Assembly: GCA_038087875.1 (NCBI GenBank)
Contig: CM075988.1
Coordinates: 21,888,001 to 21,952,000 of the forward strand
Origin: Malacoraja senta
Lineage: Eukaryota
DNA length: 64,000 bases
Reading direction: 5' to 3'
Shown: positions 6,108 through 58,813 of the stretch, piece after piece
Layout: the number at the start of each line of letters is the position of its first letter
How positions within the stretch are numbered: the first letter of the stretch is position 1
Position numbers and translations under genes: made by a program
Notes under the pieces: model-generated
The model's input: the letters and a program-made list of their open reading frames with translations, nothing else
Told to the model about the DNA's origin: nothing
Databases searched by the model: none

Positions 6108-6129
6108 AGTTATGGGAGTGTTCCTTTCT

Positions 6130-36275: not shown

Positions 36276-39200
36276 CATAGATACATAGAAAATAGGTGCA
36301 GGAGTAGCCCATTCGGCTCTTCGAGCCTGAAACCGCCATTCAATATGATCATGGCTGATCATCCAACTCAGTATCCCGTACCTGCCTTCTCTCCATACCC
36401 CCTGATCCCTTTAGCCACAAGGGCCACATCTAACTCCCTCTTAAATATAGCCAATGAACTGGCCTCAACTACCCTCTGTGGCAGAGAGTTCCAGAGATTC
36501 ACCACTCTCTGTGTGAAAAAGTTTTTCCTCATCTCGGTCTTAAAGGATTTCCCCCTTATCCTTAAGCTGTGACCCCTTGTCCTGGACTTCCCCAACATTG
36601 GGAACAATCTTCCTGCATCTAGCCTGTCCAACCCCATAAGAATTTTGTGCGTTTCTATAAGATCCCCTCTCAATCTCCTAAATTCTAGCGAGTATAAGCC
36701 AAGTCTATCCAGTCTTTCTTCATATGAAAGTCCTGACATCCCAGGAATCAGTCTGGTGAACCTTATCTGCACTCCCTCTATGGCTATAATGTCCTTCCTC
36801 AGATTTGGAGACCAAAACTGTACGCAATACTCCAGGTGTGGTCTCACCAAGACCCTGTACAACTGCAGTAGAACCTCCCTGCTCCTATACTCAAATCCTT
36901 TTGCTATGAAAGCTAACATACCATTCGCTTTCTTCACTGCCTGCTGCACCTGCATGCCTACTTTCAATGACTGGTGTACCATGACACCCAGGTCTCGCTG
37001 CATCTCCCCTTTTCCTAATCGACCACCATTTAGATAATAGTCTGCTTTCCTGTTTTTGCCACCAAAGTGGATAACCTCACATTTATCCACATTATACTGC
37101 ATCTGCCAAACATTTGCCCACTCACCCAGCCTATCCAAGTCACCTTGCAGTCTCCTAGCATCCTCCTCACAGCTAACACTGCCCCCCAGCTTAGTGTCAT
37201 CCGCAAACTTGGAGATGTTGCCTTCAATTCCCTCATCCAGCTCATTAATATAAATTGTAAATAGCTGGGGTCCAAGCACTGAGCCTTGCGGTACCCCATT
37301 AGTCACTGCCTGCCATTGTGAAACGGACCCGTTTACTCCTACTCTTTGCTTCCTGTTTGCCAGCCAGTTCTCTATCCACATCAATACTGAACCCCCAATG
37401 CCGTGTGCTTTAAGTTTGTATACTAATCTCTTATGTGGGACCTTGTCGAAAGCCTTCTGAAAGTCCAGATACAACACATCCACTGGTTCTCCCTATCCAC
37501 TCTACTAGTTACATCCTCGAAAAATTCTATAAGATTCGTCAGACATGATTTACCTTTCGTAAATCCATGCTGACTTTGTCCAATGATTTCACCACTTTTC
37601 AAATGTGCTGCTATCCCATCTTTAATAACTGACTCTAGCAGTTTCCCCACTACCGATGTTAGACTAACTGGTCTGTAATTCCCTGTTTTCTCTCTCCCTC
37701 CCTTCTTAAAAAGTGGGGTTACGTTTGCTACCCTCCAATCTTCAGGAACTACTCCAGAATCTAACGAGTTTTGAAAAATTATCACTAATGCATCCACTAT
37801 TTCTGGAGCTACTTCCTTAAGTACTCTGGGATGCAGCCTATCTGGCCCTGGTGATTTATCGGCCTTTAATCCATTCAATTTACCCAACACCACTTCCCGA
37901 CTAACCTGGATTTCACTCAGTTCCTCCATCTCCTTTGACCCGCGGCCCCCTGCTATTTCCGGCAGATTATTTATGTCTTCCTTAGTGAAGACGGAACCAA
38001 AGTAGTTATTCAATTGGTCCGCCATATCCTTGTTCCCCATGATCAATTCACCTGTTTCTGACTGCAAGGGACCTACATTTGTTTTAACTAATCTCTTTCT
38101 CTTCACATATCTATAAAAACTTTTGCAGTCAGTTTTTATGTTCCCTGCCAGTTTCCTTTCATAATCTATTTTCCCTTTCCTAATTAAGCCCTTTGTCCTC
38201 CTCTGCTGGTCTCTGAATTTCTCCCAGTCCTCTGGTATGCTGCTTTTTCTGGCTAATTTGTACGCATCATCTTTTGCTTTGATACTATCCCTGATTTCCC
38301 TTGTTATCCACGGATGCACTACCTTCCCTGATTTATTCTTTTGCCAAACTGGGATGAACAATTTTTGTAGTTCATCCATGCAGTCTTTAAATGCCTTCCA
38401 TTGCATATCCACCGTCAACCCTTTTAGAACTAATTGCCAGTCAATCTTGGCCAATTCACGTCTCATACCCTCAAAGTTACCTTTCTTTAAGTTCAGAACC
38501 GTTGTTTCTGAATTAACAATGTCACTCTCCATCCTCATGAAGAACTCAACCATATTATGGTCACTCTTGCCCAAGGGGGAACGCACAACATGACTGCTAA
38601 CTAACCCTTCCTCATTACTCAATACCCAGTCTAGAATAGCCTGCTCTCTCGTTGGCTCCTCTACATGTTGGTTTAGATAACTATCCCGCATACATTCCAA
38701 GAAATCCTCTTCCTCAGCACCCCTGCCAATTTGATTCACCCAATCTACATGTAGATTGAAGTCACCCATTATAACTGTTTTGCCTTTGTTGCACGCATTT
38801 CTAATTTCCTGTTTGATGCCATCCCCAACTTCACTACTACTGCTAGGTGGCCTGTACACAACACCCACCAGTGTTTTCTGCCCCTTAGTGTTTCGCAGCT
38901 CTACCCATACCGATTCCACATCCTCCAAGCTAATGTCCTTCCTTTCCACTGCATTAATCTCCTCTCTAACCAGCAACGCTACCCCACCTCCTTTTCCTTT
39001 CTCTCTATCCCTCCTGAATATTGAATATCCCTGGATGTTCAGCTCCCAGCCTTGGTCACCCTGGAGCCATGTCTCCGTGATCCCAACTATATCATAATCA
39101 TTAATAGCTATCTGCACGTTCAACTCATCCACCTTATTACGAATGCTCCTTGCATTGAGACAAAGCCTTCAGGCTTGTTTTTACAACGCTCTTACCCCTT

Positions 39201-39562
39201 ATACAATTATGTTGAAAAGTGGCCCTTTTTGATTTTTGCCCTGGATTTGTCTGCCTGCCACTTTTACTTTTCACCTTGCTACCTATTGCTTCCGCCCGCA
39301 TTTCACACCCCTCTGTTTCTCTGCTCACCCATTTAAGAACCCCACCACCTCTTATTCTCTGTTTATTATTGTTTTCTTCTTTCCCCCCTACATGTTGGGT
39401 CTGAGTGCTTTCCTTCTCTGCGTCCTGCCTCGCACACTGTCTAATAGCTTTCTCAATTTGAGTCCCTTCCCCCAACCATTCTAGTTTAAAGTCTCCCCAG
39501 TAGCCTTTGCAGATCTCCCCGCCAGGATATCGGTCCCCTGGAGAGGAGACCGATATCCTGGC
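36276..39562 (-). mobile_element. Young CR1/HER1 LINE: end of ORF1 and nearly complete ORF2 (APE endonuclease and RT), with a frameshift near 37490
   Basis: ITETW, VYRPP, MGDFN and SDH (APE) in the 569-aa ORF; the RT is in the 371-aa ORF. ORF1 C-terminus GTDILAGR..LN* at 39480-39540. (tatgtatc) tail and TSD attt. Empty site in unit B at about 45205-45225. Confidence 0.93.
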
Positions 39563-40261
39563 AATTTGTTGCAGACTGCACCAACAAAATTTTCCACGTT
39601 TTGAGAACAGTTTTCACATTCCCGCACCTGAGGAACGGGGGACAGGATTTAGATTTCTGAATTGTTATTACTCTATTATTGTTATTATTGCACTATTATT
39701 AGTGTTTGTTTTTTATGTGTACGCATGTGTGCACGTGTGTGTATAAATATATATGAACTGTATATATGTGTATATGTGAGTATATACACCCACATTGAAC
39801 TTTTTTCTCTCAATGATATTGTTTACAGTGTACTATGTTTACATATTCTGTTGCTGCTGCAAGTAAGAGTTTCATTGTTCTATCTGGGACATATGACAAT
39901 AAAACACTCTTGACTCTCACATTTCCAATGACTCCAAGTGTTTAAGAAAGAACTGCAGATGCTGGAAAATCGAAGGTAGACAAAAATGCTGGAGAAACTC
40001 AGCGGGTGCAGCAGCATCTATGGAGAGAAGGAAATATGCAACGTTTTGGGCCGAACACCTTCTTCAGACTACCGAAGGGTTTCGGCCCGAAACGTTGCCT
40101 ATTTCCTTCGCTCCATAGATGCTGCTGCACCCGCTGGGTTTCTCCAGCACTTCTGTTGTGCTGCAGCAAGTAAGACTTTCATTGTCCTATCTGGGACACA
40201 TGACAATAAAACACTCTTGACTCTCACATTTCCAATGAGTCCAAACTGGAAAATCCACTGA

Positions 40262-40469
40262 CTTTTACTGACGTCAGCTCATGGTTACCTGGGTCTCAAG
40301 GGGATTGACCAGAAAACAGGGGGTTGGGAAAAAAGCAGCAGAAACAAACAGGTGTCATATTCAAATGTCCACAAATTATTCTTGGGAGTGGTACCTGGAA
40401 TCCCTTTAAATTGCTCAGGACTCTCAGAACTAAAGCTACTTGCTACCTGAGAGCTCCCAGTGCAGAGAA
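40262..40469 (+). promoter_or_regulatory. Putative core promoter/5' UTR of exon 1A
   Basis: Paralogue of the 1B promoter. TTTAAA at 40405-40410, perfect CRE TGACGTCA at 40269-40276, and an approximately 20-nt deletion in the leader relative to 1B. Confidence 0.35.
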
Positions 40470-40629
40470 ATGGCTTCAATTCTACCTGCACTCCTCCTGG
40501 GCTTATTTCTTCAATATGCCCCAACCTATTCCCAGATGCAGCCCTGCGAGATAGCTAATGCAACGATGGGAGGTGACTTCAATTTGACCATCTATCCAAT
40601 GTACTACAAGACATACACACATTACAATG
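40470..40629 (+). CDS. plet1: Duplicated alternative coding exon 1 (distal copy 1A) of the PLET1-like gene
   Basis: Reads MASILPALLLGLFLQYAPTYSQMQPCEIANATMGGDFNLTIYPMYYKTYTHYN. Same 160-nt length as 1B, no stop or indel, intact G|GTAAGT donor, 13 nt differences from 1B. Confidence 0.65.
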
Positions 40630-41954
40630 GTAAGTCAATGTTTAATCTCTTTGCTTTAAAATGATTTTAGTCAGCAGGGTTTCCATTTAAGATCGTGAAA
40701 TGTTGTTGGGAGTGTTTTGGATTCTCCCCATATCCCCTGACTCCGCTATTTTTAAGAGCCCTGTTTTTAAGAGCCCAGACACAAAATGCTGGAGTAACTC
40801 AGCGGGCCAGGCAGCACCTCTGCAGAGAAGGAATGGGAGACTGAAGAAGGGTCTCGACCCGAAACGTCACCCATTCCAGTGCGGCCACGATGTGACCAGG
40901 GACTGGTGAGGTTCCAGTTTCAATCGGTCACTCATCAGAGGTCAGCTTCAGAGTGCGATAACCATGGGCGGAGTAGGGAACTGGTCTAACAATGGAGAGA
41001 TCGACAGTATGGTCCAACAGAGTCAACAATTGTAAACGGTGTGAAGTCATGCAGGAGTAAGCTGTAGGTTATGCAAAAACACAAAGTACTTTAGCACAGG
41101 GGACGAGTCCAAAACACAATGCTTTCAGAGTGTGGACTTTGCTATGTAAAGGAATGATTCCAGTTTCAATATTTATTTCGCTATTTTAGTATTACAATAG
41201 ACAATAGATAATAGGTGCAGGAGTAGGCCATTCGGCCCTTCGAGCCAGCTGATCCTTCATGGCTGATCATCCCCAATCAGTACCCCGTTCCTGCCTTCTC
41301 CCCATATCCCCTGACTCCGCTATTTTTAAGAGCCCTATCTAGCTCTCTCTTGAAAGCATCCAGAGAACCTGCCTCCACTGCCTTCTGAGGCAGAGAATTA
41401 CTTCCGGATTTTCTTCGTCAGCTAGTTTCCACCCACAGCTAATCCCCCGATTTATGACAGAGATTGGTCGCGGGAACATGTTTTGTTCAGCGCTAATTCA
41501 TGAGACAAATATCCATCACCAAGTCATTGCGGTATTAAAAGGTAGTAAGCAAGTTAGTAAGCAATCCCCACACACCACCACTATCGTACACACTTGGGAC
41601 AATTTACAATACATGCTTACAATCGATTCATTTACAGTGCAGAAATTTAAATGTGTGCAGCGAATGTAACATGTGATGCTAGATATGCTTCTGTGGATAG
41701 CATGCAAATAGTCGCCTGGGTTGGAAGTCCAGTAATCTGAGTCCATGTGAAAACAATGACTTTGAATAAAGAAGGTTCTGGCAAAGGATTCGATCCAAAT
41801 TGAAAGGCAGAACTACTAAAGCTCTGAATTATTACCTGAGCTAGGTACAAATTTCTATACAGTAAATAAGATCCGAGAGTTAATTGTGCGGTATGATGAT
41901 CGGTGAGGAAGGGAAAGGTTTCATTTTGTGAGCTGCACAGGATTAGGAGGCAGA

Positions 41955-42375
41955 TACATAGATACATAGAAAATAGGTGCAGGAGTAGGCCATTCGGCCC
42001 TTCGAGCCTGCACCGCCATTCAATATGATCATGGCTGATCATCCAACTCAGTATCCCGTACCTGCCTTCTCTCCATACCCCCTGATCCCCTTAGCCACAA
42101 GGGCCGCATCTAACTCCCTCTTAAATATAGCCAATGAACTGGCCTCAACTACCCTCTGTGGCAGAGAGTTCCAGAGATTCACCACTCTCTGTGTGAAAAA
42201 GTTTTTCCTCATCTCGGTCTTAAAGGATTTCCCCCTTATCCTTAAGCTGTGACCCCTTGTCCTGGACTTCCCCAACATCGGGAACAATCTTCCTGCATCT
42301 AGCCTGTCCAACCCCATAAGAATTTTGTACGTTTCTATGAGATCCCCTCTCAATCTCGTAAATTCTAGCAAGTAT
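41955..42375 (-). mobile_element. CR1 3' fragment of the same young subfamily as 36276-39562
   Basis: Near-identical to 36276-36695. Confidence 0.88.
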
Positions 42376-45300
42376 TTAGCCATGATTGAATGACAGAGTA
42401 GACTCGATGGGCCGAATGGCCTACTCCTGTAACTTGTGAACCTGTGGGTGATGGTAACCAAAGTCCACCAGGAAAGGACAGAACACGCAAACACAGAGAT
42501 GAACAATTTTGCCCCAAAATATCAAGAGAGTTAAGAGTGTTTTACTGTCAAATATCCCAGATAGAACAAAAGAATATGTAAACATAGTACACTGTAAACA
42601 ATATAATAAACAAGAAAAAAAAGTTCAGTGTGTGTATGTATCAACATAAATATATTTACATATATACAACTTCATCTGCCCATTTCCCTCCACAGATTTT
42701 CGTTTAGCTTAGTTTAGGCTAACGTAATCAAGGGGATATGGGGAGAAGGCAGGAACGGGGTACTGATTGTGGATGATCAGCCATGATCACATTGAATGGC
42801 GGTGCTGGCTTGAAGGGCCGAATGGCCTACTCCTGCACCTATTGGACCAAGGCTGGAGGTGAAAACTGAGACAAATGAGTGACCAAGTGTTGGCTAGAGT
42901 AACCTTTGTGAAACGAAGATAATGCCAAAGCATTCTATACTCAGAAACATGGGTGTAAATAGACGTGGCTTGTAAAGTCTACGTGTGCATGTGAAAAGCC
43001 AGGATAATCAGTAGAAAGAATTGAATTAAATGAGAGGTTTCACACTGAAGGGTTTGCCACGCTGCTTGGGTGGCATTTGGATTCGAGAGAACCAACCCAT
43101 CACCAACTAGAGAGCGGTCCGGACCCATCAAGTACCTCATTGGAGACCCTCAAATTATCTTTCACTGGACTTTATCTTGCACTAAGTGTCATTCCCTTGA
43201 TCCTGCATCTGTACACTGTGGACAGCTTGATTGTAATTCGTGTACAGTCTTTCCGCTGACTGGATAGCACGCAATTAAAACGTTTTTCACTGTACCTCGG
43301 TACAGGTGACAATAATAAACAAAACTAAAATCTGAAGAAGGGTCTCGACCCGAAACGTCATCCAATCCTTCTCGCCAGAGATGCTGCCTGACCCGCTGAG
43401 TTACTCCAGCATTGTCCTAGCGCCGGGGAGTTCTTGCGGAGACGGGGTGTCCGTGACCTGCAGTGAAGCCACGATAGCGAGTTCCTCTCTCCCCATCTCT
43501 TCCCATCCCTCTTCCCATCCCTCTTCCCACTCCTCTCCCTCTATCTCCTCCCCCACACTCCCTCCTCACTTCCCCCATTCCCGGTCGGTTATCCTTGGTT
43601 CTGAAAACTATTGCTTACTTTTTCTTTACCCAATGAGCCATTGTAAATCACAGGTCAGCACCGGCTACAACCTACGAGAACCTTTGATCTCCTGGCAACT
43701 CACTAGGACCTCCTGGCGACCCACCTACGGCACGAGAATTCTCGCTACTCTCCATGGCGGCTTCATTCTAGTCGTCGCTAATTTTTCAACACATTGAAAA
43801 ATTCACGGCGACCATAATGAGTCCGGGACTAGTTCCCAGAATGCAGGAACCCCTCACGACCATGAAGGCGACTTCCCGGCAACCACCGGCGAACATGTGG
43901 TGACTGCATAGTCTCCTGCAGTCGCCTAAAAAGTCACCTAAAAAGTCGCCTAAGTGGGACAGGCCCATTAGGGCAAAGGGAATCAAGGGATATGGGGAAA
44001 AAGCTGGAACGAGGTACTGATTGTGGATGATCAGCCATGATCATGTTGAATGGTGGTTCTGGCTCGAAGGGCCGAATGGCCTACTCCTCCACCTATATTC
44101 TATGTTTCTATGAACTCGATGGGTCAGGCAGTGTTTGTGGAGGGAAAGTTACAGAAAATAGCTTGTTCAAAATACTCACCACCCTCTGTGTGAAAGAGTT
44201 GCCCCTCAGGTTCCTATTAAATCTTTCCCCCTCACCTAAAACCTATGCCCTTGAGTTCTTGATTCCCAGCCTTTGGAAAAGTCTGTGCATTCATCGTACC
44301 AATGCCATTCGTGATTTTACACCTCTTTAAGATCACAAGAAATTACAGATGCTGGGTCCTGAGCAAAGAACAAAATGCTGGAGGAACTCAGCGGGTCAGG
44401 CAGAATCAATGGAGGATAATGGACAGACTGGACTTCAAACGGAAGAGTCCTCAAATGAGATCTGTAAATTTCTCTCCACAAATACTGTCTGACCAGTTGA
44501 GTTCCTCCAACATTTTGTTTTTTTGCTCTGTAAAATCACCTCTCAGTGTCCCACCCTCCAAGGAATAAAGTCCCAGCCTGCCCAACCTCCCCATATTCAG
44601 GGACAGTTTCTTCCCAGCTGTTATCAGGCAGCTGAACCAACTAGCAAACAGTCCTGAGCTACTATCTACCTCATTGGTGACCCTTGGACTATCTGAAGAA
44701 GGGTCTCGACCCGAAACGTCGCCAATTCCTTCTCTCCATAGATGCTGCCTCACCCGCTAAGTTCCTCCAGCATCTTTGTCTACCTTGGATCATCTTTGAT
44801 CGGACTTCACTGGCTTTACCTTGCGCTAAACGTTATTCCCTTATCGTGTATCCACACACTGTAAATGGCTCGATTGTAATCATGTATTGTCTTTCCGCTG
44901 TCTCGTTACTACTGTACCTTGGTACGCATGACAATAAACTGAACTATAGCTCAGCTCCTTGTCCAGGCAATATCCTCGTAAATCTCTGCATTCTTTCAGG
45001 CATTTTTTCAATAAAAGTTTCTTGGTCATGGGGAGCAGCCTGGAAAGATCGGAGCCGTCCCCAGTCTATGTCGGACCGACTATCAAATGGAACTTTACTG
45101 CAAGTTTCAAGGGAGTTTGTTCAATTTTCATTCCGCCAGGAACCACCAGAGTTTGCCACTAGGTTTCTCAATCAGTAATGAGAGCAGAGATCTGTTGCCT
45201 CTCCTCCCTCAGGATTTGTTGCAGACTGTACCAACAACATTTTCCACGTTTTGAGAACACATTCCAGCACCTGAGAAACGGGGGACAGGATTTAGATTTC

Positions 45301-45599
45301 TGAATTATTATTACTCTATTATTGTTATTATTGCACTATTATAGTGTGTTTATCATATGTGTGCATGTGTGCACGCGTGTGTATAAATATATATGGACTG
45401 TATATATGTGTATATGTGAGTATATACACCCACACTGATCTTTTTAATCTCCTTAATTATATTGTTTACAGTGTGCTATGTTTACATATTCTGTTGTGCT
45501 GCAGCAAGTAAGACTTTCATTGTCCTATCTGGGACATATGACATTAAAACACTCTTGACTCTCACATTTCCAATGAGTCCAAACTGGACAATCCACTGA

Positions 45600-45828
45600 C
45601 TTTTACTGACTTCAGCTCATGGTCACCTGGGTGAAAGGGGAATTGACCAGGAAACAAAGGGGGAGGGGGAAAAGCAGCAGAAACAAGCAGGTGTCATATT
45701 CAAATGTCCACAAATTATTCTTGGGGGTGGTACCTGCAATCCCTTTAAATTGCACAGGACTCTCAGAACTAAAGCTACTAGCAATAGGTCGTGTTTTCTT
45801 GCTACCTGAGAGCTCCCAGCGCAGAGAA
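45600..45828 (+). promoter_or_regulatory. Putative core promoter/5' UTR of exon 1B
   Basis: TATA-like TTTAAA at 45744-45749, 85 nt before the ATG, with CAGGTG/CACCTG E-boxes in non-repeat sequence. Confidence 0.4.
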
Positions 45829-45988
45829 ATGGCTTCAGTTCTACCTGCGCTCCTCCTGGTCTTATTTCTTCAATATGCACCAACCTATTCCCAGTGGCAT
45901 CCCTGCGAGATAGCTAATGCAACGATGGGAGGTGACTTCAATTTGACCATCAATCCAATGTATTACAAGACAAACACAAACTACACTG
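45829..45988 (+). CDS. plet1: PLET1-like GPI-anchored glycoprotein, coding exon 1 (proximal copy 1B: signal peptide and first Cys)
   Basis: ATG at 45829 reads MASVLPALLLVLFLQYAPTYSQWHPCEIANATMGGDFNLTINPMYYKTNTNYT, with a hydrophobic signal peptide. It ends G|GTAAGT (phase 1), compatible with exon 2. The PLET1 label comes from overall architecture and motif memory, not a search. Confidence 0.8.
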
Positions 45989-48900
45989 GTAAGTCGATGT
46001 TTAATCTCATCACGGGCGCAACCTGGGGTGGATGTTAATTTGTGTTAATTTGTGTTTATTGTGTGTTTTGTTATTTATTATATGTATGCAGGCAACGAAA
46101 TTCCGTTCAGACCGAAAGGTCTGAATGACAATAAAGGAATCTAAGTCTAAGTAAACCTGTTCTTTATACAGCCTTTCGCTTTAAGTTTACAGAATTGCTT
46201 TAAAATTATTTTAGTCAGCAGAGTTTCCATTTAAGATCGTGAAATGTTGTTGGGAGTGTTTTGGGGTTTGGTTGCAAACCCACGTTGTTTTTGCATGAAG
46301 CTTTATTGATGTTTGGAAACTGAGGCGCAACAGGTTTGTACATTTGTGGATGGATATATGGAGATCCCTCTCGGTTCTCTCTCCCCTGACTCTCACTCTG
46401 AAGAAGGGTCACCTCTTCCTTTTCTCCAGAGTTGCTGCCTGGCCCGCTGGGTTACTCCAGCTCTTAGTGTCTACCTTCTTGAGGTGGATACATCTCTGCG
46501 ATTGTTACGTTAAACAGGGAATCTTGCCGATATTTCAAAAGTTGTGAGAATCGGATTTCAAACGATGCTTGGTCCCTGACTTCTTAGCCAGATACCAAGG
46601 GCGTACCTATCCTGGAGTATAATTACACCAGCTAATTGGCCCACCCTTGCTTTGTACAGAGAGAGAACACACGAGGCTGTGGATATTTCATAGATATTCA
46701 AATGTGCTGCAGTTTTGGTCACCTTTCCCTTTGTTCCTTCGGATCTGTGCATTTAACAGCACAGGAGTTGGGAGCAGTTCAGTCTCCAGTAGAGGGAGGG
46801 GGCTTTGCTGATAAACATATTTGTACATGAAAGGCCACAAAGTGCTGGAGTAACTCAGCCGGTCAGGCAGCATCTCTGGAGAAAATGCTTAGGCGACAGA
46901 GCCCTTCTTCAGACCCGAAACATCGCCTATCCTTGTTCTCCAGAGATGCTGCCTGACCTGCTGAGTTACTCCAGCACTTTGTATCTTTTTTATTTTTGCA
47001 AACCTGGCAGTTCCTTGAATTCTTCCAGAGGTAGAAATGTCGCAAACTAACGACCAGTGTTTTGGCAATGATTTTGTGATAAATGTAGAAGCAAGAAAAG
47101 TCTAAAGGGCTGTGGGTTTTGTGTGACATTCCCACATCTCAGGGACCTGGTTCGATCCTGACCAGGCAGGGTGTGTCCATGTGGAATTTGAATAATTCCC
47201 CTGTGACTGCTCAGGTTTCACCCAGGTGGTTTATTCCCACGTCCCGGTGGCCTTGCAGGTTAATTGTCCACTGTGAAACACCCCTTAATGGCGGAAAGAT
47301 TCGAAGGGAAGGAGGATAAACAAGTGGCAGAGATGCAGAAAGGAAAGGAGGCGGGGTCTCGGACTGATAGTATTGCTCTTCCGTGATCGATATGAACCAG
47401 ATGGGCCGAATGGCCTCGTTCCACGTCATTATAAACAGATGATAAAAGTGAATCCATTCAATCCTGTGCCCAGCGAACAGTGACCACGTCACATTCAGAC
47501 AGAGAGCGCAGCAAACTATCTCAGCAATGTTTTAGCTCCTTCCCCAAACTCCAAACCGACTTCTAGGAAAGGAGTGAGAGAACAATTTTGGTCACCTCCT
47601 TTTCTTCCTTCTGATCTGTGCATTTAACAGCACATGAATTGGAAGCAGTTCAGTCCCTAGTTGAGGGAGGGGGCTTTGCTGATAAAGATATCTGTACATG
47701 AAAGGACACAGAGTGCTGGAGTAACTCAGCGGGTCAGGCAGCATCTCTGGAAAATATGGATAAGTGACATTCTTCAGACCCGAAAACGTCACCTATCCAT
47801 GTTCTCCAGAGATGCTGCCTGACGTGCTGAGTTACTCCAGCACTTTGTGTCTTTCTTTTGCAAACTAGCACCTGGCAGTTCCTTGTGTGTACATAAATGG
47901 GAGCTCCCTAGATCGGACAGATTGGACTTTGCCGGCTTTATCTTACACTAAACGTTATTCCCTTATCATGTACTGATAAGGGAGTAATGTACACTCTGTA
48001 AATGGCTCGATTGTAATCATGTATTGTCTTTCTATACAGTAAATAAGATCCGAGAGTTAATTGTGGGGTATGATGATCGGTGAGGAAGGGAAAGGTTTCA
48101 TTTTGTGAGCTGTACCGGAGAAGGTGGAGCTGTTCTCATGGGATGTCTAGACTTGAATCAGGCTGGGATGAGTGGCCAGGTGAAGCAACTGAACAGGACT
48201 ACAAAGATATACGTCAAAAGGCATATAGTTGTAGCTTCTAATGGGGGGGGGGGGGGGATTAGAAAGGTTAAAAGTAAGGACACGTTAAGAAGAGTAGTGA
48301 AATGAGCAGTTTGTTTTGTGCTTACAGAAATAGATAGAGTGGATGTGGAAAGGATGTTTCCACTGGTGGGAGAGTCTAGGACCAGAGGTCACAGACTCAG
48401 AATTAAAGGGCGCTCTTTTAGAAAGAAAGTGAGGAGGAACTTCTTTAGTCAGACGGTAGTTAGTCTGTGGAACTCATTGCCACAGAGGGCTGTGGAGGCC
48501 AAGTCAGTGGATATTTTTAAGGCAGAGGTAGACAAATTCTTGATTAGAACGGATGTCAAGGGTTATGGGGAGAAGGCAGGAAAACAGGATTAGGAGGCTA
48601 AAGATCAGCCATGATTGAATGGTGGAGCAGACTCGATGGGCCGAATGGCCTAATTCTACTCCTGTAACTTGTGAACCTGTGGGTGATGGTAACCAAAGTC
48701 CACCAGGAAAGGACAGAACACGCAAACACAGAGATGAACAATTTTGCCCCAAAATATCAAGAGAGTTAAGTGTTTTATTGTCAAATATCCCAGATAGAAC
48801 AAAAGAATATGTAAACATAGTACACTGTAAACAATATAATAAACAAGAAAAACAAGTTCAGTGTGTGTATGTATCAACATAAATATATGTACATATATAC

Positions 48901-51422
48901 AACTTCATCTGCCCATTTCCCTCCACAGATTTTCTTTTAGTATAGTTTAGGCTAACGGAATCAAGGGATATGGGGAGAAGGCAGGAACGGGGTACTGATT
49001 GGGGATGATCAGCCATGATCACATTGAATGGCAGCGCTGGCTCGAAGGGCCGAATGGCCTACTCCTGCGCCTATTGTCTATGTATCTATGTACCTCTGAG
49101 AAAACCCACGTGGGTCACGTGAAGAACGCACAAACTCCATACAGACAGTACCCATAGTCGGGATCGAACCCGGGTCTCTGGCGCTGCAAGCGCTGTTGGG
49201 CAGCAACTCTACCGCTGCGCCACCGTGCCACCCAAAGCATTTGCAAAGCATTTGTAGCAAGATGAGAGAATTAATGGCAAAGAAAATAAATGACGATAGT
49301 GATTCTTCTTATCGAGTCCACACACAAGATTTGAAGTTGTTCAACCAGAGCTGAACACACTTCTCGGCATCTGCATACAATGGTGTCTGTCTTGTCGCTT
49401 CTTGTGCGTGGTGGGGGAAAGATTGGTGGAAACAGGGCCACGACGTGAACGCTCTTTCCTTGACTGCCACTACATTATTACATCTTATTTGTCTTCCATG
49501 ACTCAGATTTACCCAGAGAAGTCTCCCCATGCTCACCTCTGTTTTTGGCAAAGTTTTCCTTTGATTATTTTTCTTTTCAAGGTTCCTTTAAACTTTTATG
49601 AATATTGGGGAACTACCTTTAAACATATGACAGGAGACAAGAAATGGCTGATGTTTAAAGAATTCATATATCAGTTTAGAGCAAATATAGATCCAGATAG
49701 GGTGCAAAAATGGTCCAGCCATTGTCAACGAGAGTTCATTGCTGGATGTTGAGGTAAATAGGGGACACGGGGTTAGTGCAGGGAAGGGAAATGCACAAAG
49801 TGCTGGAGTAAGTAAACGGGGCTGGCAGCATCCATGGAGGGAATGGCCAGCCAATATTTCATAGATCATCCAAAATTAGTTTCCCCCGTTCCTGCTCTCT
49901 CCCCTTATCCCTCGATTCTGTTAGCCCTAAGAGCTAAATCTAACTCTCTCTTAAATACATCAAAAGGTCAGGTCGGGATCCTTCTTTAAGTCTGATTGGA
50001 GGTGGGAGAAGGCTTGGAAAAGAGAGGTGAGGGTGGGACAAAGCCTGCCAAACGATAGGGGAATGCAGGTGTGTGTGTGTGGGGGGGGGGGGGAGTGGGG
50101 GTCGATTAGCAGGTGGGTGGAATTCATGACCAAGGCTGGAGGTGAAAACTGAGACAAAAGAGTGATCAAGTGTTGGCTGTGTTGTGGATTACATGGGCAA
50201 TAAAGACCTCCATCACTATAGTAACCTTTGTGAACCGAAGATAATGCCAAAGCACTCTATACTCAGAAACATGGGTGTAAATAGACATGGCTTGTAAAGT
50301 CTAAGTGTGCATGTGAAAAAACAGGTTAATCAGTAGAAAGAATTAAATTCAATGAGAGGTTTCACACTGAAGGGTTTGCCACACTGCTTGGGTGGCATTT
50401 GGATTCGAGAGAACCAACCCATCACCAACTAGAGAGCGGTCCCGACCCATCATTTACCTCTTTGGAGACCCTCAAATTATCTTTCGCTGGACTTTATCTT
50501 GCACTAAGTGTCATTCCCTTGACCCTGCATCTGTACACTGTGGACAGCTTGATTGTAATCGTGTACAGTCTTTCCGCTGACTGGATAGCACGCAATTAAA
50601 ACGTTTTTCACTGTGCCTCGGTACAGGTGACAATAATAAACAAAACTAAAATCTGAAGAAGGGTCTCGACCCGAAACGTCATCCAATCCTTCTCGCCAGA
50701 GATGCTGCCTGACCCGCTGAGTTACTCCAGCATTGTCCTAGCGCCGGGGAGTTCTTGCAGAGACGGGGTGTCCGTGACCTGCAGTGAAGTCACGATAGCG
50801 AGTTCCTCTCTCCCCATCTCTCTTCCCATCGCCTCTCCCTCTATCCCCCCCCCTCCTCCCCCACTCGCTCCTCACCTCCCCCATTTCCCCCTCTCTCTCC
50901 CTCCCTACCCCCTCCTCTCCTTCAATCCCCCCACTTCTCCAGAGATGTTGCCTGACCCGCTGAGTTACTGCAGCATTTTGTGGGTATCCCACCCCGTTGA
51001 TGGCTGGTGCTCGGCTTCCGACAGCCACTGGATAAGGCGAGAGGTGTCGGGGAACGGGTTCCTCGGGAGTTGGAGCAGAGTTGAGCTGGAGTTAGCGCTG
51101 GCTGAAAGCCTGGGGCACAGCCGGACAGGATGGGACACTCGGGAGGGGATGGTAGTGAGATCACCCGTTCGCACTTGTTCTACATTATCTAACTCCAGTA
51201 GCAATTCAACGGCGCTTGCAGCGCCGGAGACCCGGGTTCGATCCTAGCTACGGATGAAACGCAGGTCCGTATTACACGGGCACGAGAATGTTTATCGCGA
51301 ATGACCTATGACCTGGGCATGCGCAGTCGGAATACCGAACTCGCTTATTGACATTCATGTGCTTCTACTCCATAGCCTTGCACCCATGTGGGAAATATTA
51401 ACTTTTCTTTTCACTTTCCCAG

Positions 51423-51603
51423 TCACGGTTTCTGGATTTGGCGAGAACGCAACGATTGTACTGTCCACTTACTTCAACGGTACGGCCGTGGGGATGTGGA
51501 TAAACAATGCAACAGATTGTAATGGATTCAAGGGGATAAGGAGCACATATGCAATGGAACAATGGGTTTCACCTTTCATCATCAGCGATTATGTTATGAT
51601 CAG
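51423..51603 (+). CDS. plet1: PLET1-like coding exon 2
   Basis: Acceptor ttttcttttcactttcccAG and donor AG|GTATTG. 181 nt, phase 1 to phase 2. Reads (V)TVSGFGENATIVLSTYFNGTAVGMWINNATDCNGFKGIRSTYAMEQWVSPFIISDYVMI(R), with VGxW, C and WxSP motifs reminiscent of PLET1/reeler-like domains. Confidence 0.8.
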
Positions 51604-54051
51604 GTATTGTCTAATCTTCCCATGTAACGCACTGCCAGGGGCGGTGGTAGAGTCAAATATAATAGAGGCATTTAGTTTAGCTTAATTTTAGAGATACCGC
51701 ACACACTAACGCTACCCTAGGCACACTAGGGACAATATACACTTATACCAAGCCAATTAACCTACAGACCTGTACGTCTTTGGAATGTGGGAGGAAACCG
51801 GCGCTCGGAGAAAACCCACATGGTCACGGGGAGTGTGGACAAACTCTGTACAGACAGCACCCATAGTCGGGATCGAACCCAGGTCTTTGGCGCTGTATGG
51901 CAGCAACTCTACCGTTGCGCCACCGTGCTGCCCCATTTAAGAGGCTTTTGAATAGGCACATGGATACGCAGGGACGTTCAGTTTAGTTTATTGTCACGTG
52001 TACCAAGGTACAGTGAAAAGATTTGTCCTGTCAGCGGAAAGACAATACATGATTACAATCGAGCCATTTGCTGTGTATAAGATAAGGGAATAATGTTTAG
52101 TGCAAGGTAACGCCAGTAAAGTCTGATCAAAGATAGTCCGAGGGTCCCAATGAGGTAGATGGTATTTCAGGACTGCTCTCTAGTTGTGGCAGAATAATTC
52201 AGTTGCCTGATAACAGCTGGGAAGAAACTGTCCCTGTATCTGGAAGTGTGCATTTTCACACCTCTATACCTTTTGCCCGATGGGAGAGGGGAGAAGAGGG
52301 AGTGGCCAGGGTGCGACTTGTCATTGATTATGCTGCTGACCTTGCCGAGGCAGAGTGAGGTATAAATGGAGTCAATGGAAGGGATATGGATCACATGCAG
52401 GCAGTGGAGATAAGCTTCACTTGGCATCATGTTCAGTATGGACATTGAGGGCCGAAGGGCCTGTTCATGTGCTGTACTGTTCTATGCATTGCGTTCTATA
52501 TTCATATAAGTAGTTTCCCCTTGACATGCATTGAATCATTGAATGTCCCTGATCAGTAACTAGCCTTTGCTAGTAACTAGCCATGTACTCATAAATATGA
52601 AATATGTTGAGCAAGTTGGGATATTCAGCCCACAGCAACTGTAAGGTTTGTACAACCTTTTCTGCAATCTACCTCCAATGATAAGCATGAAGCCTCATCA
52701 ATGTATCTGCAAAAGTGTAGAAGAAGTTAGACATTGAATACGAGAACAAACTACCAGACAGAATGGAGTCATAGCGTCAAGAGTCATACAGCGCGGAATC
52801 AGACTCTTCGGCCCAACCTGCCGCGCCGACCAACATGTCCCATCTACACTAGTCCCACCTGCCTGCGTTTGGCCCTTATCCCTCTAAACCTGCCATACCC
52901 ATGTAGTTGTCCAAACGCTTCTTAAATGTTGCGACAGTCCCGGCCTCAACTATGTTATTAACTTAATCTGAACATTGACAATAAATTCTATTAATAATAA
53001 TTATTCCTATGAAGCATTGGTTAAATTAATTAACAGCTCTGGAAACAAATGGAAAATTAAAATAGGAGAAAAAGTGAAAAACTTGCCTTTAGTTTCTATA
53101 AATCCTTCCCTCCTCACCTTAAACCTATGTCCTCTGGTTCTTCATTTCCCTACCCATGGAATAAGACTCTGTATTCACTCTATCTATTCCCTTAATTAAA
53201 TCGGTGCAGAACCTGTGTTCCTGGGAATAATGGTCCATATCCTTCTAAAGCTTTGTTATCCATGTACCTGTCTAAATGTCTTCAAATGTTGTTATAGACC
53301 TGCCTTAACGACTTCGTCTGACAGCTCGTTCCATATACCCACCACCCTCTGTGAAAAAGTTGCCCCTCAGGTTCCTAATCTTTTCCCTCTCAGTTTAAAC
53401 CTATGTCCTCTGGATCTTGATACCCCTACTCTGGCACTTACTCAATCCACTTCCCCCATGATCTTATACACCCTGATAATGTAGCCCCTCAGCCTCCTGC
53501 GCTGGAAAGGAATAAAGTCCAGCCTGCCCAAACTCTCCCATGGGCAGAGGCCCTCAAGTCCTGGCAACATCCTCACAAATCTTCTCTTGCACTCTCTCCA
53601 ACTTCATAAGTTCATAAGTGATAGGAGCAGAATTAGGCCATTTGGCCCATCAAGTCTAATCCACCATTGAATCATGGCTGATCTATTTTCCCCTCTCAAC
53701 CCCATATTCCTGCCTTCTCCCCATAACCCCTGACACCCGTACTAATCAAGAATCTATCAATCTCTGCCATAAAAATATCCATTGACTTGGCCTCTACAGA
53801 CATCAGTGGCAATGAATTCCACAGATTCACCACCCTCTGACTGAAGAAATTCCTCCTCATCTCCTTTCTAAAAGCATGTCCTATTATTCTGAGGCCATTT
53901 CCTCCAGTCCTAGACTCTCGCACTAGTGGAAACATCCTCTTCACATCTATACTATCCAGCTTAAGGGCATCTTTTCTGTAGCAGTGACACCTAAACTGAT
54001 GCAACTGTGAGAAAGGACTTTTAACATGAATGTGTTTCTATCTTTGTCCAG

Positions 54052-54107
54052 GGCTTTCGTTTACATGATGAATGGAACTTATACCAAGAAAATAGCCCTC
54101 ATGCAAA
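54052..54107 (+). CDS. plet1: PLET1-like coding exon 3
   Basis: Acceptor tttctatctttgtccAG and donor A|GTAGG. 56 nt, phase 2 to phase 1. Reads (R)AFVYMMNGTYTKKIALMQ(I) and bridges exons 2 and 4 in frame. Confidence 0.72.
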
Positions 54108-57100
54108 GTAGGATTTATTTTCATTTTCATTCAAGTAATTGAGCGTTATAGTGTGATAAAGAATGTTTTATTGTTATTTTAACCGCACTTGCTTATGTTT
54201 TTTTAAGGGATTATAAAATTATAGAAATCACCAGCTTTCTCCCTCTCTCCTGCCCTGGCAGAAAAACTCAGGCAGTAACTGCGTTTCCTTTCCTGTCCCA
54301 CGTCACACAGTTCAGAGGAACAATGTTTTCTCTTTCAACCTGATGAAGGGCCCTGACACCAACATTCACCTGTCCATTTCCTCCGCAGATGCTGCCTGAC
54401 CCACTGAGTTCCTCTGCCATGTTGTGTTTTGCTGAAGGTTCCTTTATATGGAGCACGTGATGATTGATTTATTGATTGATCGAAAGATACAGCATGGAAA
54501 CAGGCCCTTCGGCCCAACGAGTCCATGCGACCATCGATCACCCGTTCACACTAGCTCTGATGTTATCCCACTTCCGCGTCCGCTCCCTGCACACTAAGGG
54601 CAATTTAAAGGGGCCAATCAACCTACAAAACCTGACGTCTTTGGGATGTGAGGAGGAGATTGGAGCACCCAAAGGAAACCCATGTGGTCACAAGGAGAAC
54701 GTGCAAACTCCAAACACGTTGAGGGATACAGCGCGGAAACAGGCCCCACCAAGTCCGCGCCGACCAGCGATCACCCCGTACACTCGCACTATCCTACACA
54801 CTAGGGGCAATTTACACATTTTTTAACCAAATCCAATTAACCAACAAACCTGTATAATGTCTCTGGAGTGTGGGAGGAAACCGGAGCCCCCAAGGAAAAC
54901 CCATGTGGTCACAGGGAGAGCGTACAAACGCCGTACAGACAGCACCCATAGTCAGGATCGAACCCGGGTCTCCGGCGCTGTGAGGCAGCAAGTCTACCAG
55001 CTGCGCCACAGTGCCGCCCGCGATAGAAATCGAGATACCGAAAGCATGTCAGTGCTATTGCTGACAATAATAATTGGAACCGGGTCTATTATTCCCCAAC
55101 AAAGGCATTGAGGATCAATGTAACAAAGTGAGATCATCGTTTCACCTGGAAGGGATGATGGTTCATGGATTTCTGGTTCAACAAGCAGCACAAATGTTCG
55201 TTCACAAACTGAATTAAAACCTAACGAAAAGAAAATGAACAGGTTATACACACTTTCGTCGATGGGGAATTGAGAGACACTAATGTTGGACTCAGTATTG
55301 TGTTTATATTGTTTGTGCTCCGTAAAAACAAAAAGTTATGTTTCAAACGTATTCAAAGTAAAATGATTATGTAACAATGTGATGTCTTTCCACACAGTGA
55401 TGCCTCCGACCACCATTCCAGCTAACACAACAGGTAAGGTCACAGATAATGCAAGCAGCTTCAAGCCATGGCATGGATTTTCTTGTGTAAGAAGGAACTG
55501 CAGATGCTGGTTTACACCGAAGATAGATACAACTTAGCGGGGCAGGACAGAAGGAATGGGAGATGTTTCGGATCATGACACCTTCGTCAGTAGATTCTGC
55601 TCCTTGTTGCTCTCCAAGAATCGCTGTTATAAACAGTACAAAACGTTTTTGTTACCAAACTAGCAAACTACCACTTCCAAAAGGTTCACTTCTAAGCATA
55701 AGATATTCGTAAGTAAAATGCAAAATGCTGGAGTAACTCAGTGGGCCAGGCAGCATCTCTGGAAGGTATGGAAAGGTGACGTTTCAGGTCGGGACCCTTC
55801 ATCAGAATGATGGTAGTTGTGGAGGGGTACGGGGGGGGGAGAAAGCTGGAAGAGAGGTGGAGGTGGGACAAAGGCAAGCAAGTGATAGGTGGACACAAGT
55901 GGACAAAGACCAGAGATGAAATGGAGACACAGGTTGTGAGATTAGTAAGTAAGTAAGTTTTATTCATATAGCACGTTTAAATCAACTCGCGTTGAAACCA
56001 AAGTGCTTTACATAAAATAATTAAGTTTCCGTACATTCATAGAAAATTTTTTTTTTAAAGAAAAATGACACAACACATTATAGAATTCAACACAAACATC
56101 CCCCACAACGGAATCAAAATTAGGAGAGAAGAGGAGTGAAATGTGAGGCCGGAGAAAGGGATGTAGGTGGAAGGGAATGGAGGGGAAGGGGAAAGTGGGG
56201 TGGGATGGTGGGAGAGATGAGTGCACGCCTATCCATTCCCTCCACCCATATGGCTTGACCCGCTGAATTGCTCCAGCACTATGTGGCTATCTTCGGTGTA
56301 AACAGTTCCTTCCTACACATTGTAGTGTAGTACAAGTTCCCAAATATTCCTAAATATTCATTCAGTGATTATGGTCAATTTGATGAGGTTTTGTTATCCG
56401 ATTTTATACTTCATTTATTATAACTTCTTTAGCATTTCTGTACCATGGAGCCTGAATGATCACAAACTGGATATTCAGGCTCTTCAGCATGGAAGACAGC
56501 ACCCACCCCAGGCGACTGTCTGCCTGCTGGCCACAGAAGCACATCTACAATCACATATTACCATCACTCTTCTCTAGACTGTAAATGGCTCGATTGTGAT
56601 CATGTATGGTTTTTCCACTGACTGGAAGCAACGAAAGCTTTGCGCTGTTCCTCGGTACACGCGACAATAAACTAAACCGAACTATGCTGCCTGTCCCACT
56701 GAGTTTCTCCAGCACTTTGTTTCTTCAGAATCCTATTCCATTCCGAACTTAAAGCAGGCGCATATTCGACCAATAGTGTAATAAAATAAATTCCACTAAA
56801 TAGATTCACAAATGCCAGTGAATTCCTGCAATACATTATTACTGGAGTTTCTCAACTAATGAGTGGAATTTAGTAATAGCCAAGCCCTAATCAAATCAAG
56901 TTTCTAGTATAGAAGGGTCTCGACCCGAAACGTCACCCATTCCTTCTCTCCAGAGATGCTGCCTATCCTGCTGAGTTACTCCAGCATTTTGAGTCTACCT
57001 TCGATTTAAACCAGCATCTGCAGTTCTTTCCTACACAAATTTCCAATATTATGGCTCACGTGCTCCACAGCCCTCTGTGGCAATGAGTTCCACTGATTAA

Positions 57101-57564
57101 CTACCCTCTGACTAAAGAAGTTCCTCCACACCTCCTTATTAAAAGAGCGCACTTTAATTCTGAGTTTATGGCCTCTGGTCCTAGACTCTCCCACCAGTGG
57201 AAACATCCTTTCCACATCCACTCTATCTATGTCTTTCATTATTCTGTAAGTTTCAATGAGGTGCCCCCCCCCCCCCCCCCCGCAACCTTGTGGCATTGTG
57301 ACATCATCTTTGGAATCTGCTGGAAAAAGGCTGTCTGTGAGAAGCGGTGTTTGGCTTTTGAAAAAAACTTTAATCGTGAATAACTTGTGAAATATAGGTC
57401 AAAATGTTAAGTGAACGTGAGTATGGTGTGGACGGAAAAATGTGATTCAGAATATGTAAACATTTAAGTGCTACGGCGTAGCGTTTTGACGAAAATACAA
57501 AATAACACATACACGGACACAAACATACATACTGTATATACATACAAGATGAGACTTTAATAGG

Positions 57565-57601
<37 letters not shown>

Positions 57602-58664
57602 GCTCATTGTTACACTCCAAGAATTGCTGTTACAAACAGTAAGAAATGCTTGTCTTCAGTCTGAAGAAGGGTCTCGACCTAGCACGTCACCCATTCCTTC
57701 TCTCTAGAGATGCCGCCTGTCCCGCTGAGTTACTCCAGCTTTTTGTGTCCCTCTTCGGTGTAAACCAGCATCTGCAGTTCCTTCCTACACAGCTTACTAC
57801 CATCACCCCAGCTCCAAAAGCTCAGAGACTAACCATAAGACTAACTGCTGAACACTCCGTTCAGTCCGCCTAGGCCTACGCAATCTCTCGGTTGCCAAAC
57901 ACTATAGCCCACCACCCCCCCCTCCCATTCCCATACTGACTTTTCTGTCCCGGGCCTCCTCCACTGTCAGAGTGAGGCCCAGTGCAAATTGGAGGAACAG
58001 CATCTCATATTTCGCTTTGGTATGAATCTTGATTTCTCCAACTTCAAATAACCCTTGCCTTCTGCCTCTCTGTGCTTCCTTGTGTCTCCATGCATAGTTT
58101 CTTACTATGACATTGAAGGAGATCTTTCAGCCCATCAGGCCCATTCCAACTCCCAGCAGAACCATCCCATCCTTGCAGAATTCAAATCTGGCTGATAAAT
58201 CATTGGATGTAATCGCTTTATCAAATGGGGAACTTTAGTCTTTAGACATACAGTGCGGAAACAGGCCCCCTGAGTCCTCACTGACCAGCGCTCACCCACT
58301 ACACTAAGACTAGCCTGCACACTAGGGACAATTTTACAATTTTTTTACCAAAGCCAATTAACCTACAAACATGTACGTCTTTGGAGTGTGAGAGGAAACT
58401 GGAGCACCTAGAGAAGACCAGCACGGTCACAGGGAGGACGTGCAAACTCCGCACAGACAGCACCCAGAGTCAGGATCGAACCCGGGTCTCTGGGGCTGTG
58501 AGGCAGCAACTCTACCACTGCGCCACTGTGCCGCCTGCGACCCAAAGGACTCCGTTTGAATTTACCATCACGCTTGCATAAATTGCGGTCAATAGGACAA
58601 TGTTATATTTGAAATTTGAAACTAAAAAAACTCATCATGTAATGAATCGTTTTGTCTTTCACAG

Positions 58665-58813
58665 TTTATGCCAACATGAACACCACCATGTACATGAATA
58701 CGACAACCGGCACCATGAGAACAACTCAAAACTCTGCACCTGGCATTAGCTCCAAGCCACTGCAAGCCTTTGTCTGTATGCTCCTGCTCCTCGTCACTGT
58801 GCCAGGGTTATAA
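58665..58813 (+). CDS. plet1: PLET1-like terminal coding exon (Thr-rich stalk and GPI-anchor signal)
   Basis: Acceptor ttttgtctttcacAG. Reads (I)YANMNTTMYMNTTTGTMRTTQNSAPGISSKPLQAFVCMLLLLVTVPGL*: small-residue omega-like N-S-A, a spacer, then a hydrophobic C-terminus with no cytoplasmic tail. Confidence 0.8.

Follow-up and report, generated by a model that had tools for sequence, protein, structure and literature searches.

The 64-kb stretch of Malacoraja senta DNA analysed here (the window, taken at its full length) contains a skate gene of the PLET1 family in which the promoter and the first coding exon are present as two tandem copies, followed by one common set of later exons (Table 1). 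Alignment of the window to itself with blastn delimits a head-to-tail duplication of two units, A and B, each comprising about 2.2 kb of homologous upstream DNA (insertions ignored), a 160-nt exon with an ATG and most of intron 1. The matching blocks are collinear: 34309-35347, 35681-36274, 39564-39937, 40151-40649, 42378-42844 and 42845-43582 in unit A pair with 43576-44622, 44618-45217, 45214-45582, 45489-46008, 48607-49076 and 50128-50888 in unit B. A preliminary description of this DNA had placed the start of the duplicated unit near 40470; it actually lies about 6 kb further upstream, at 34309. The same description had the duplicated promoter, exon 1 and intron 1 stop about 530 bp before exon 2, which agrees with the 535 bp that we measure between the end of unit B (about 50888) and the start of exon 2. 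At the junction, 43580/43581, A runs directly into B across a short microhomology, ATTxCC, and direct reading of the three breakpoints revealed no transposon common to them. The LINE found only in unit A has frames matching Pfam Exo_endo_phos and RVT_1, and a fragment of its 3' end recurs with 97% identity in intron 1 of that unit (41955-42375). The window has no N letters, and an Rfam scan of 34000-59500 gave no match.

Table 1. Features of the duplicated PLET1-family locus, in window coordinates.
Feature	Position	Strand	Basis
Duplication unit A: upstream region, promoter A, exon 1A, most of intron 1; A-only insertions	34309..43580	+	self-blastn, block alignments
LINE, unit A only, endonuclease and reverse-transcriptase frames	36275..39563	-	self-blastn; Pfam
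Candidate TATA-like element TTTAAAT, 59 bp 5' of exon 1A ATG	40405..40411	+	direct reading
Exon 1A, coding part: putative signal peptide and first ~31 mature-domain residues; donor phase-1 G|GTAAGT	40470..40629	+	
Head-to-tail junction, short ATTxCC microhomology	43574..43587	+	direct reading of three breakpoints
Duplication unit B: upstream region, promoter B, exon 1B, most of intron 1	43581..50888	+	self-blastn, alignments, reading
Candidate TATA-like element TTTAAAT of promoter B, 79 bp 5' of exon 1B ATG	45744..45750	+	direct reading
B-only insertions in unit B	45780-45799, ~46009-46194, 49077-50127	+	self-blastn, alignment
Exon 1B, coding part: length, frame and donor as 1A; 8 residues different	45829..45988	+	
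Shared exon 2, core of reeler-like domain	51423..51603	+	tblastn, splice check
Shared exon 3, last strand of the domain	54052..54107	+	orthologue comparison
Shared exon 4, 36-nt Thr/Pro-rich stalk cassette	55398..55433	+	
Shared exon 5: stalk, hydrophobic C-terminal tail (GPI-signal-like), stop codon	58665..58813	+	

When the whole window was searched by tblastn with five orthologous proteins, exon 1 was found twice and each later exon once, and the earlier claim that no second set of downstream exons lies between the copies is thereby upheld. The number of common exons has been revised from the three first described to the four indicated by orthologues, all with canonical splice sites, and the gene therefore has five coding exons. 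A model in which exon 2 runs to 51623 and is spliced straight to 55398 was dropped, as orthologues place exon 3 between them. An AATAAA follows exon 5 at 58818. Both first exons can be read directly as retaining the ATG, the 160-nt length and the phase-1 donor that had been ascribed to them, and they face the single exon 2 acceptor at 51423, each having a strong donor and needing no acceptor upstream; with either one the frame is open for 193 codons and includes 10 N-x-S/T sequons. Identity to skate orthologues is 79-91% for exon 1 and 83-84% for exon 2, and exon 1A matches the Amblyraja radiata protein P0002 at 48 of 53 residues. Isoforms of Leucoraja variably include an 11-residue cassette that matches exon 4. 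At the N-terminus, a hydrophobic stretch (residues 5-15), modelled as a helix and followed by a conserved Cys26, forms a putative signal peptide, while the C-terminus encoded by exon 5 consists of small residues and then a hydrophobic tail (helix 184-198 in the orthologue model), which resembles a GPI-attachment signal.

Profile similarity places the gene in the PLET1 family. A profile of 6 elasmobranch sequences (A2), searched against 1.84 billion representatives, gave 66 matches at E<=0.001, of which 20 were looked up by name. Seven are PLET1 or PLET1-like, including the mammalian PLET1 of Sciurus carolinensis (E=9.2e-7, profile positions 10-197) and of Saccopteryx bilineata (E=2.3e-5); 11 are "uncharacterized", "hypothetical" or "secreted protein C-like", one of them with the UniRef name "Reelin domain-containing protein"; and 2 are unnamed. 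Because the elasmobranch profile reaches named mammalian PLET1, the provisional label "PLET1-like" holds. The skate protein is built like mammalian PLET1: behind an N-terminal hydrophobic leader comes one glycosylated domain some 110 residues long, then a stalk rich in Ser/Thr and, at the C-terminus, a hydrophobic tail. Identity to the mammalian proteins is low at 22-28% (alignment A3). The main isoform of mouse Plet1 is described as a predicted GPI-anchored, cell-surface protein (PMC4848516). The two annotated mouse isoforms that this source outlines, one GPI-anchored and the other short and presumably secreted, differ at the C-terminus, not in the first exon as in the skate gene (PMC4848516). 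Among the papers listed for Plet1 and sharks, none deals with cartilaginous-fish PLET1, judged by title or abstract.

The ectodomain fold is, on the model, a reeler beta-sandwich. Specifically, the AF2 model of the Amblyraja orthologue has a domain pLDDT of at least 95, and its best Foldseek match in the PDB is the F-spondin crystal structure 2zou_A (E=8.5e-6, TM 0.60 when scaled to target length); F-spondin reeler chains fill ranks 1-8 (E 8.5e-6 to 6.1e-5). Sequence identity in the structural alignments is, however, only 15-17%, and no Pfam family, Reeler included, matched P0001, P0002 or any of three exon translations from the window at E up to 10.

Related skates offer a comparison for the duplicated structure. 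All five named isoforms of Leucoraja erinacea begin with one 1A-type exon 1, as do Amblyraja radiata isoforms X14-X16 (X1-X13 being left aside), and the homologous-protein search, with the same coverage of Amblyraja, found no 1B-type N-terminus and no protein from Malacoraja senta. In Rhinoraja longicauda, the adjacent genes LOC144608634 and LOC144608635 belong to the same family and have nearly identical domains. There, however, the whole coding region has been doubled to give two genes, whereas the duplication in Malacoraja senta takes in no more than the promoter, the first exon and the greater part of intron 1, so that the two copies must share exons 2-5.

The tandem duplication is real, covers about 7-9 kb and probably dates back tens of millions of years; it gave a PLET1-family gene a second promoter and first coding exon, along with most of intron 1. 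The product of the gene would consist of a signal peptide, an N-glycosylated domain of reeler type, a stalk resembling mucin and a GPI-signal-like tail. In the mechanism that we propose, transcription would begin at promoter A or promoter B, and the sole cap-proximal donor, at 40629 or 45988, would be spliced to the one acceptor at 51423. Lacking an acceptor, exon 1B would be removed with the intron from transcripts initiated at A. The pyrimidine-rich 20-nt B-only segment was considered as a cryptic acceptor that would make 1B an internal exon, and was rejected by eye, the reading running into a stop. The resulting 193-residue precursors would differ at two signal-peptide and six early mature-domain residues; of these six, residues 49, 51 and 53 are predicted to sit in the loop that leads into the second strand and at every other position of the strand itself. 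In favour of this reading, unit B retains the proximal 2.2 kb of upstream DNA that unit A has. Promoter activity, the splicing of 1B to exon 2 and any functional difference between the two forms are putative. We give a probability of roughly one half to this reading, namely that the locus holds two alternative first-exon modules, derived from a real duplication and with 1B presumably in use, upstream of one constant set of four exons.

Such a gene would be a two-unit case of the known design of variable first exons plus constant exons (PMC1885805, PMC3325998). The locus has tandem homologous first exons with homologous upstream regions, in two units, and same-phase donors with one acceptor and one constant exon set. 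In UGT1A and the clustered protocadherins, first exons likewise arose in tandem by duplication; each has its own promoter region and donor, all face one acceptor of a common exon set, and it is the N-terminal, ligand-facing portion of the protein that the variable exon specifies. The skate gene differs in having two units only and in being known from genomic sequence alone. Moreover, its variable exon is 53 codons long, of which about 22 encode the predicted signal peptide, and just 8 residues are different. The nascent UGT1A- or protocadherin-like design put forward in the preliminary description is thus fair as an account of structure, and as an account of mechanism it stands as a proposal.

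A less probable alternative is that one module (1B, or one of the two) is a silent and drifting by-product of partial gene duplication, the gene being fed by promoter A and exon 1A alone, or by just one module. Across 3648 aligned non-coding bases the units show 145 mismatches (4.0%), and 36 indel events separate them, which, with the copy-specific insertions, bears out the indels and transposon insertions already reported. Exons 1A and 1B differ at 13 of 160 bases (8.1%) and 8 of 53 residues (I4V, G11V, M23W, Q24H, Y42N, Y49N, H51N, N53T), with three codons purely synonymous, precisely as had been listed, and are therefore no better conserved than their flanks. By the Nei-Gojobori method there are 9.0 non-synonymous and 4.0 synonymous differences (divergence 0.076 and 0.123, against 0.041 in the flanks; P=0.065 for dN versus the non-coding rate), and the dN/dS of 0.62 is indistinguishable from 1, that is, from neutrality. 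At about 13 substitutions, neither an intact 53-codon frame nor the lack of an indel (P ~0.2 at the indel density of the aligned blocks) is surprising; with so short an exon and a duplication of no great age, a drifting copy could have stayed intact. The presence of 1A-type exons alone in the named isoforms of related skates is consistent with a silent copy, as is the state of promoter B. The perfect TGACGTCA motif of unit A (40269-40276) has a G-to-T change in unit B (45607-45614), the 20-nt B-only segment near the start site accounts for the longer spacing between the TATA-like element and the ATG, and 20 nt past the 1B donor begins an AATAAA-containing insertion of about 186 nt that unit A lacks.

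Drift would not, however, predict the character of the residues in 1B, its sparing of every invariant residue or its divergence above the neutral flanks. All family-invariant alignment columns are kept in exon 1B, and its 160 nt show no indel where about 1.6 would be expected. Five positions set 1B apart from 1A and from all three other skates; the residues that it carries there average a frequency of 0.31 in 47 family members outside the skates, compared with 0.056 for the 338 possible single-base non-synonymous changes (P=1.5e-4, 200000 draws, for positions chosen post hoc with the alignment already viewed). N49 is found in 37/47 and T53 in 24/47 of these members, and Y49 and H51, the residues of 1A and other skates, in 0/47. 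Nor would drift predict that a glycan site be replaced two residues away by two cooperating changes: the sequon N53-V-T is lost in 1B and N51-Y-T53 takes over, which would move the N-glycan site from N53 to N51. Residues 51-71 form a strand in the AF2 Amblyraja model, and as Y52 and V54 are invariant or nearly so, residues 51 and 53 are predicted to face the opposite way. On the family alignment, then, the residues of 1B are non-random in character, which suggests that the exon has not simply decayed. The excess of exon over flank divergence is nominally significant (Fisher P=0.014), and the 9 transversions in exon 1 exceed those in all 2515 non-coding 160-nt windows. Yet 8.2% of such windows have at least 13 mismatches (empirical P ~0.08), and the excess is therefore only suggestive.

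The family-typical residues of 1B may instead have been imported or preserved by gene conversion, as opposed to one-by-one fixation, which we regard as improbable. Either a short tract came from another PLET1-like copy, or the duplication is older than it appears, its flanks having been homogenised and the end of the exon spared, a history that would in turn point to selection for distinct exons. Clusters of differences occur at exon positions 66-71 (3 within 6 nt) and 144-157 (4 within 14 nt), and such clusters might go back to a single complex mutation, to two of them or to a conversion tract, instead of to selection. Synonymous and non-synonymous divergence both exceed the flank value, and the locus duplicates readily, as the pair of adjacent full genes in Rhinoraja longicauda attests. 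Exons 1A and 1B nevertheless have L14 and T48 in common, found in neither Amblyraja nor Leucoraja, and are therefore mutual closest relatives over most of their length. Moreover, no second skate paralogue appears in the 66 profile matches (20 looked up by name, 2 of these unnamed), and the intron right after the donor is 96% identical (77/80), so that any unconverted island would have to be very small.

Sequence-run contigs bear on whether the second unit is real. Runs X1, X2 and X3 consist of genomic contigs that extend over introns, and X7 has coverage in repeats only; the 7 listed runs with exon 2 are DNA or of a kind not given. Short contigs from X1 and X2 agree letter for letter with copy-specific stretches in each of the two units, and a 137-base contig under another organism label (run X3, record 20) covers 45744-45879 with 5 other letters and 1 gap. 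The joints listed over 40000-59500 all lie within repeats. Although no independent read or contig crosses 43580/43581 among the matches listed, an assembly artefact (uncollapsed haplotype or mis-join) is very improbable: the 4.0% substitutions, 36 indel events and copy-specific insertions, among them the 3.3-kb LINE confined to A and about 1 kb confined to B, are more than an uncollapsed haplotype would show, the window is gap-free, the microhomology junction is clean, X1 and X2 match both units, and the other-label contig carries the 20-nt B-only segment.

Beyond the architecture, and more tentatively, we hypothesize that 1B may be a selectively kept second first exon, which would provide the skate lineage with a second PLET1 ectodomain variant under its own promoter. 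Exon 1B might then restore on the second reeler strand the surface and glycans of the wider vertebrate family (N49, T53, sequon 51), with 1A encoding a skate-specific form (Y49, H51, N53) alongside it. The divergence of the exons above their flanks could in that case mark an island held different by selection, possibly against homogenising gene conversion, and the locus would show a cell-surface glycoprotein gene with variable first exons at a very early stage, when it has just two units.

To our knowledge, UGT1A, the clustered protocadherins and other large loci of this design are known only as mature, many-unit arrays. If exon 1B is silent, the skate locus is an ordinary partial gene duplication. 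If the proposed reading is true, it would be a clean two-unit case, with a datable duplication, defined breakpoints, a small coding difference on one surface patch and a shifted glycan, and would show the first step of such loci in a form traceable across skate species. More generally, it would offer a handle on which face of the PLET1 ectodomain matters.

The PLET1-like gene is the only host gene that we saw in the 64 kb. Its two copies of the first coding exon, 1A and 1B, lie where the preliminary description had placed them, each being 160 nt long, opening with ATG and ending in G/gtaagt, and they differ at 13 bases, accounting for the eight residue changes already listed (I4V, G11V, M23W, Q24H, Y42N, Y49N, H51N, and N53T) and three purely synonymous codons. 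Three shared exons had been proposed downstream, whereas orthologues show four. All splice sites of the model are canonical, an AATAAA lies at 58818, and with either first exon the open frame has 193 codons and 10 N-x-S/T sequons.

Features of the PLET1-like locus and repeats in the window
Feature	Position	Strand	Context or basis
Retroelement	3129-7095	-	reverse-transcriptase frame 5007-6197; tyrosine-recombinase-like frame 3129-4202
Other reverse-transcriptase frames	16202-17509 and 27037-27936
DDE_3 transposase remnant, Tc1/mariner-like	23667-24239	-
Unit A	34309-43580		self-blastn
LINE, 3.3-kb	36275-39563	-	unit A only; endonuclease and reverse-transcriptase frames (581 and 374 codons)
TGACGTCA, perfect palindrome, CRE-like	40269-40276		promoter A, about 200 bp before ATG
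Exon 1A	40470-40629		unit A
LINE 3' fragment, 420-bp	41955-42375		intron 1 of unit A; 97% identical to LINE 3' end
Unit B	43581 to about 50888		self-blastn
TGACTTCA in place of TGACGTCA	45607-45614		promoter B
Exon 1B	45829-45988		unit B
tRNA-like stretch with GGTTCGATCC box	about 51190-51260		about 170 bp before exon 2
Exon 2	51423-51603		shared; orthologue comparison
Exon 3	54052-54107		shared; orthologue comparison
Exon 4	55398-55433		shared; orthologue comparison
Exon 5	58665-58813		shared; orthologue comparison

Searches with the exon 2 translation identified Leucoraja erinacea LOC129712313 and Amblyraja radiata LOC116991281 (85-87% identity), both named 'uncharacterized protein', and wider searches added two adjacent Rhinoraja longicauda genes as well as proteins from sharks, of which two bear the name 'placenta-expressed transcript 1 protein-like'. 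A six-sequence elasmobranch profile found 66 matches (E<=0.001) among 1.84 billion representatives, including PLET1 of two mammals at nearly full length (E=9.2e-7 and 2.3e-5). Since 7 of the 20 matches whose names were checked are PLET1 or PLET1-like and none indicates another family, the proposed PLET1-like identity holds. No Pfam model matches the protein. For the Amblyraja orthologue, an AlphaFold2 model based on 50 family members reaches pLDDT >= 95 across residues 30-130; its fold is a beta sandwich, and the eight top-ranked PDB matches are without exception F-spondin reeler domains (E from 8.5e-6). The protein begins with a leader, continues with a reeler-like domain containing two conserved cysteines and a stalk rich in Thr and Pro, and ends in a hydrophobic tail. 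The main isoform of mouse Plet1 is described, in passages of PMC4848516, as predicted to be GPI-anchored and on the cell surface; the literature searched yielded no study of cartilaginous-fish PLET1. Named isoforms of the Leucoraja and Amblyraja orthologues vary in an 11-residue Thr/Pro stalk cassette and in versions of the last stalk/tail segment, which suggests duplicated 3' exons in those species; each of these exons is single copy in the window. The two Rhinoraja genes (P0010 and P0011) are full-length and nearly identical, and in the model of one, a non-signal segment of about 50 residues takes the place of the leader at the N-terminus. Internal duplication also happens in the family, as in a 309-residue Discoglossus pictus member (P0029) with two tandem reeler-like domains.

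Self-blastn of the window revealed a head-to-tail duplication larger than the exons it contains, its two units each holding upstream region, putative promoter, first exon, and most of intron 1, and aligning in six long collinear blocks (88-95% BLAST identity, gaps counted). Direct reading of the three breakpoints showed the end of unit A directly abutting unit B's start. Microhomology is limited to a short ATTxCC, and no transposon is shared, which points to slippage or end-joining rather than recombination between repeats. Unit B stops 535 bp short of exon 2, in line with the preliminary description, and tblastn of five orthologous proteins against the 64 kb placed two copies of exon 1 and a single copy of every later exon. 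Non-coding differences amount to 145 of 3648 aligned positions (4.0%) plus 36 indel events; a 333-bp segment is restricted to unit A, and unit B alone carries a 20-nt leader segment, some 186 nt directly following the donor, and roughly 1 kb of sequence at 49077-50127. Vertebrate-like substitution rates are about 1e-9 per site per year, and the non-coding distance of 0.041 would then date the duplication to roughly 20 million years ago, or earlier if elasmobranch rates are slower. The confinement of the LINE to unit A, together with its near-identical 3' fragment, indicates that this family was active after the duplication. The retroelement at 3129-7095, whose Pfam Phage_integrase matches fall under the curated cut-off, presumably resembles a DIRS/Ngaro-type element. 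The tRNA-like stretch is probably a tRNA-derived SINE; Rfam gave no match at gathering score in 34000-59500.

We hypothesize, with a probability of about 0.5, that both first-exon modules are used. Each would be able to start a transcript, with the cap-proximal donor joining the sole acceptor at 51423; in A-initiated transcripts exon 1B would be removed with the 10.8-kb intron, because it has no acceptor. The predicted products differ at two leader residues and at six residues within the initial strands of the reeler domain. The same logic is described, in the portions consulted, for the multiple variable first exons of UGT1 (PMC3325998) and of several human clusters (PMC1885805).

Whether exon 1B is alive was judged from its sequence. 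It carries no indels (1.6 expected) and retains all family-invariant residues, and its distinguishing residues are those of the wider family: among 47 non-skate members, N49 occurs in 37, T53 in 24, and N51 in 7, while the skate/1A states Y49 and H51 occur in none. The five 1B-side changes, at positions picked after viewing the alignment, have a mean family frequency of 0.31 versus 0.056 for all 338 possible single-base non-synonymous changes of exon 1A (P=1.5e-4; 200000 draws); unpolarised, the 1B state is commoner in the family at five of the eight positions, tied at two, and rarer at one. Moreover, the sequon N53-V-T is replaced in 1B by N51-Y-T53, requiring H51N and N53T together. In the orthologue model residues 51-71 form a strand with an invariant Y52 and a nearly invariant V54, and residues 51 and 53 are therefore predicted to face the other way, on its opposite, glycan-bearing face. 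Such a pattern would be predicted by selection on a translated exon and not by random decay, which speaks against one module being a silent relic.

A relic is nevertheless the leading alternative, if a somewhat unlikely one. At least five of the eight residue changes fall on the 1B side, and exon 1A is closer to other skates (48/53 residues identical to Amblyraja, versus 43/52 for 1B), with a 1A-type first exon in all five named Leucoraja isoforms and the three Amblyraja isoforms seen. Promoter B has the extra 20 nt and a broken TGACGTCA motif, and an insertion containing AATAAA begins 20 nt after the exon 1B donor. The dN/dS between the exons is 0.62 (9.0 and 4.0 differences), indistinguishable from 1. 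Their divergence exceeds that of the flanks (8.1% versus 4.0%; Fisher P=0.014), an excess weakened because non-coding divergence is heterogeneous, 8.2% of non-coding 160-nt windows having 13 mismatches or more; their 9 transversions lie above all 2515 non-coding windows. Conversion or a complex mutation behind the 1A/1B differences appears improbable: the exon 1B pattern would likewise be expected if a tract had been converted from another copy, but no second skate paralogue was found among the profile matches that could be named. An assembly artefact is very hard to credit, and the duplication is almost certainly real, given the divergence and indels between units, copy-specific insertions in both, an N count of 0 in the window, and short genomic contigs (two runs, same organism label) that are identical to copy-specific stretches. 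From a differently labelled organism comes a contig of 137 bases (X3 record 20) that spans 45744-45879, including the B-only 20 nt, at 5 mismatches and one gap, which suggests that copy B is present in a second organism; the B-only 20 nt could alternatively reflect a deletion in copy A.

Tandem duplication of a promoter plus first exon is an already known route to alternative first exons. What makes the Malacoraja senta locus attractive is that it presents a clean stage of two units in a gene for a cell-surface glycoprotein; in another skate, Rhinoraja longicauda, the locus has also undergone whole-gene duplication.
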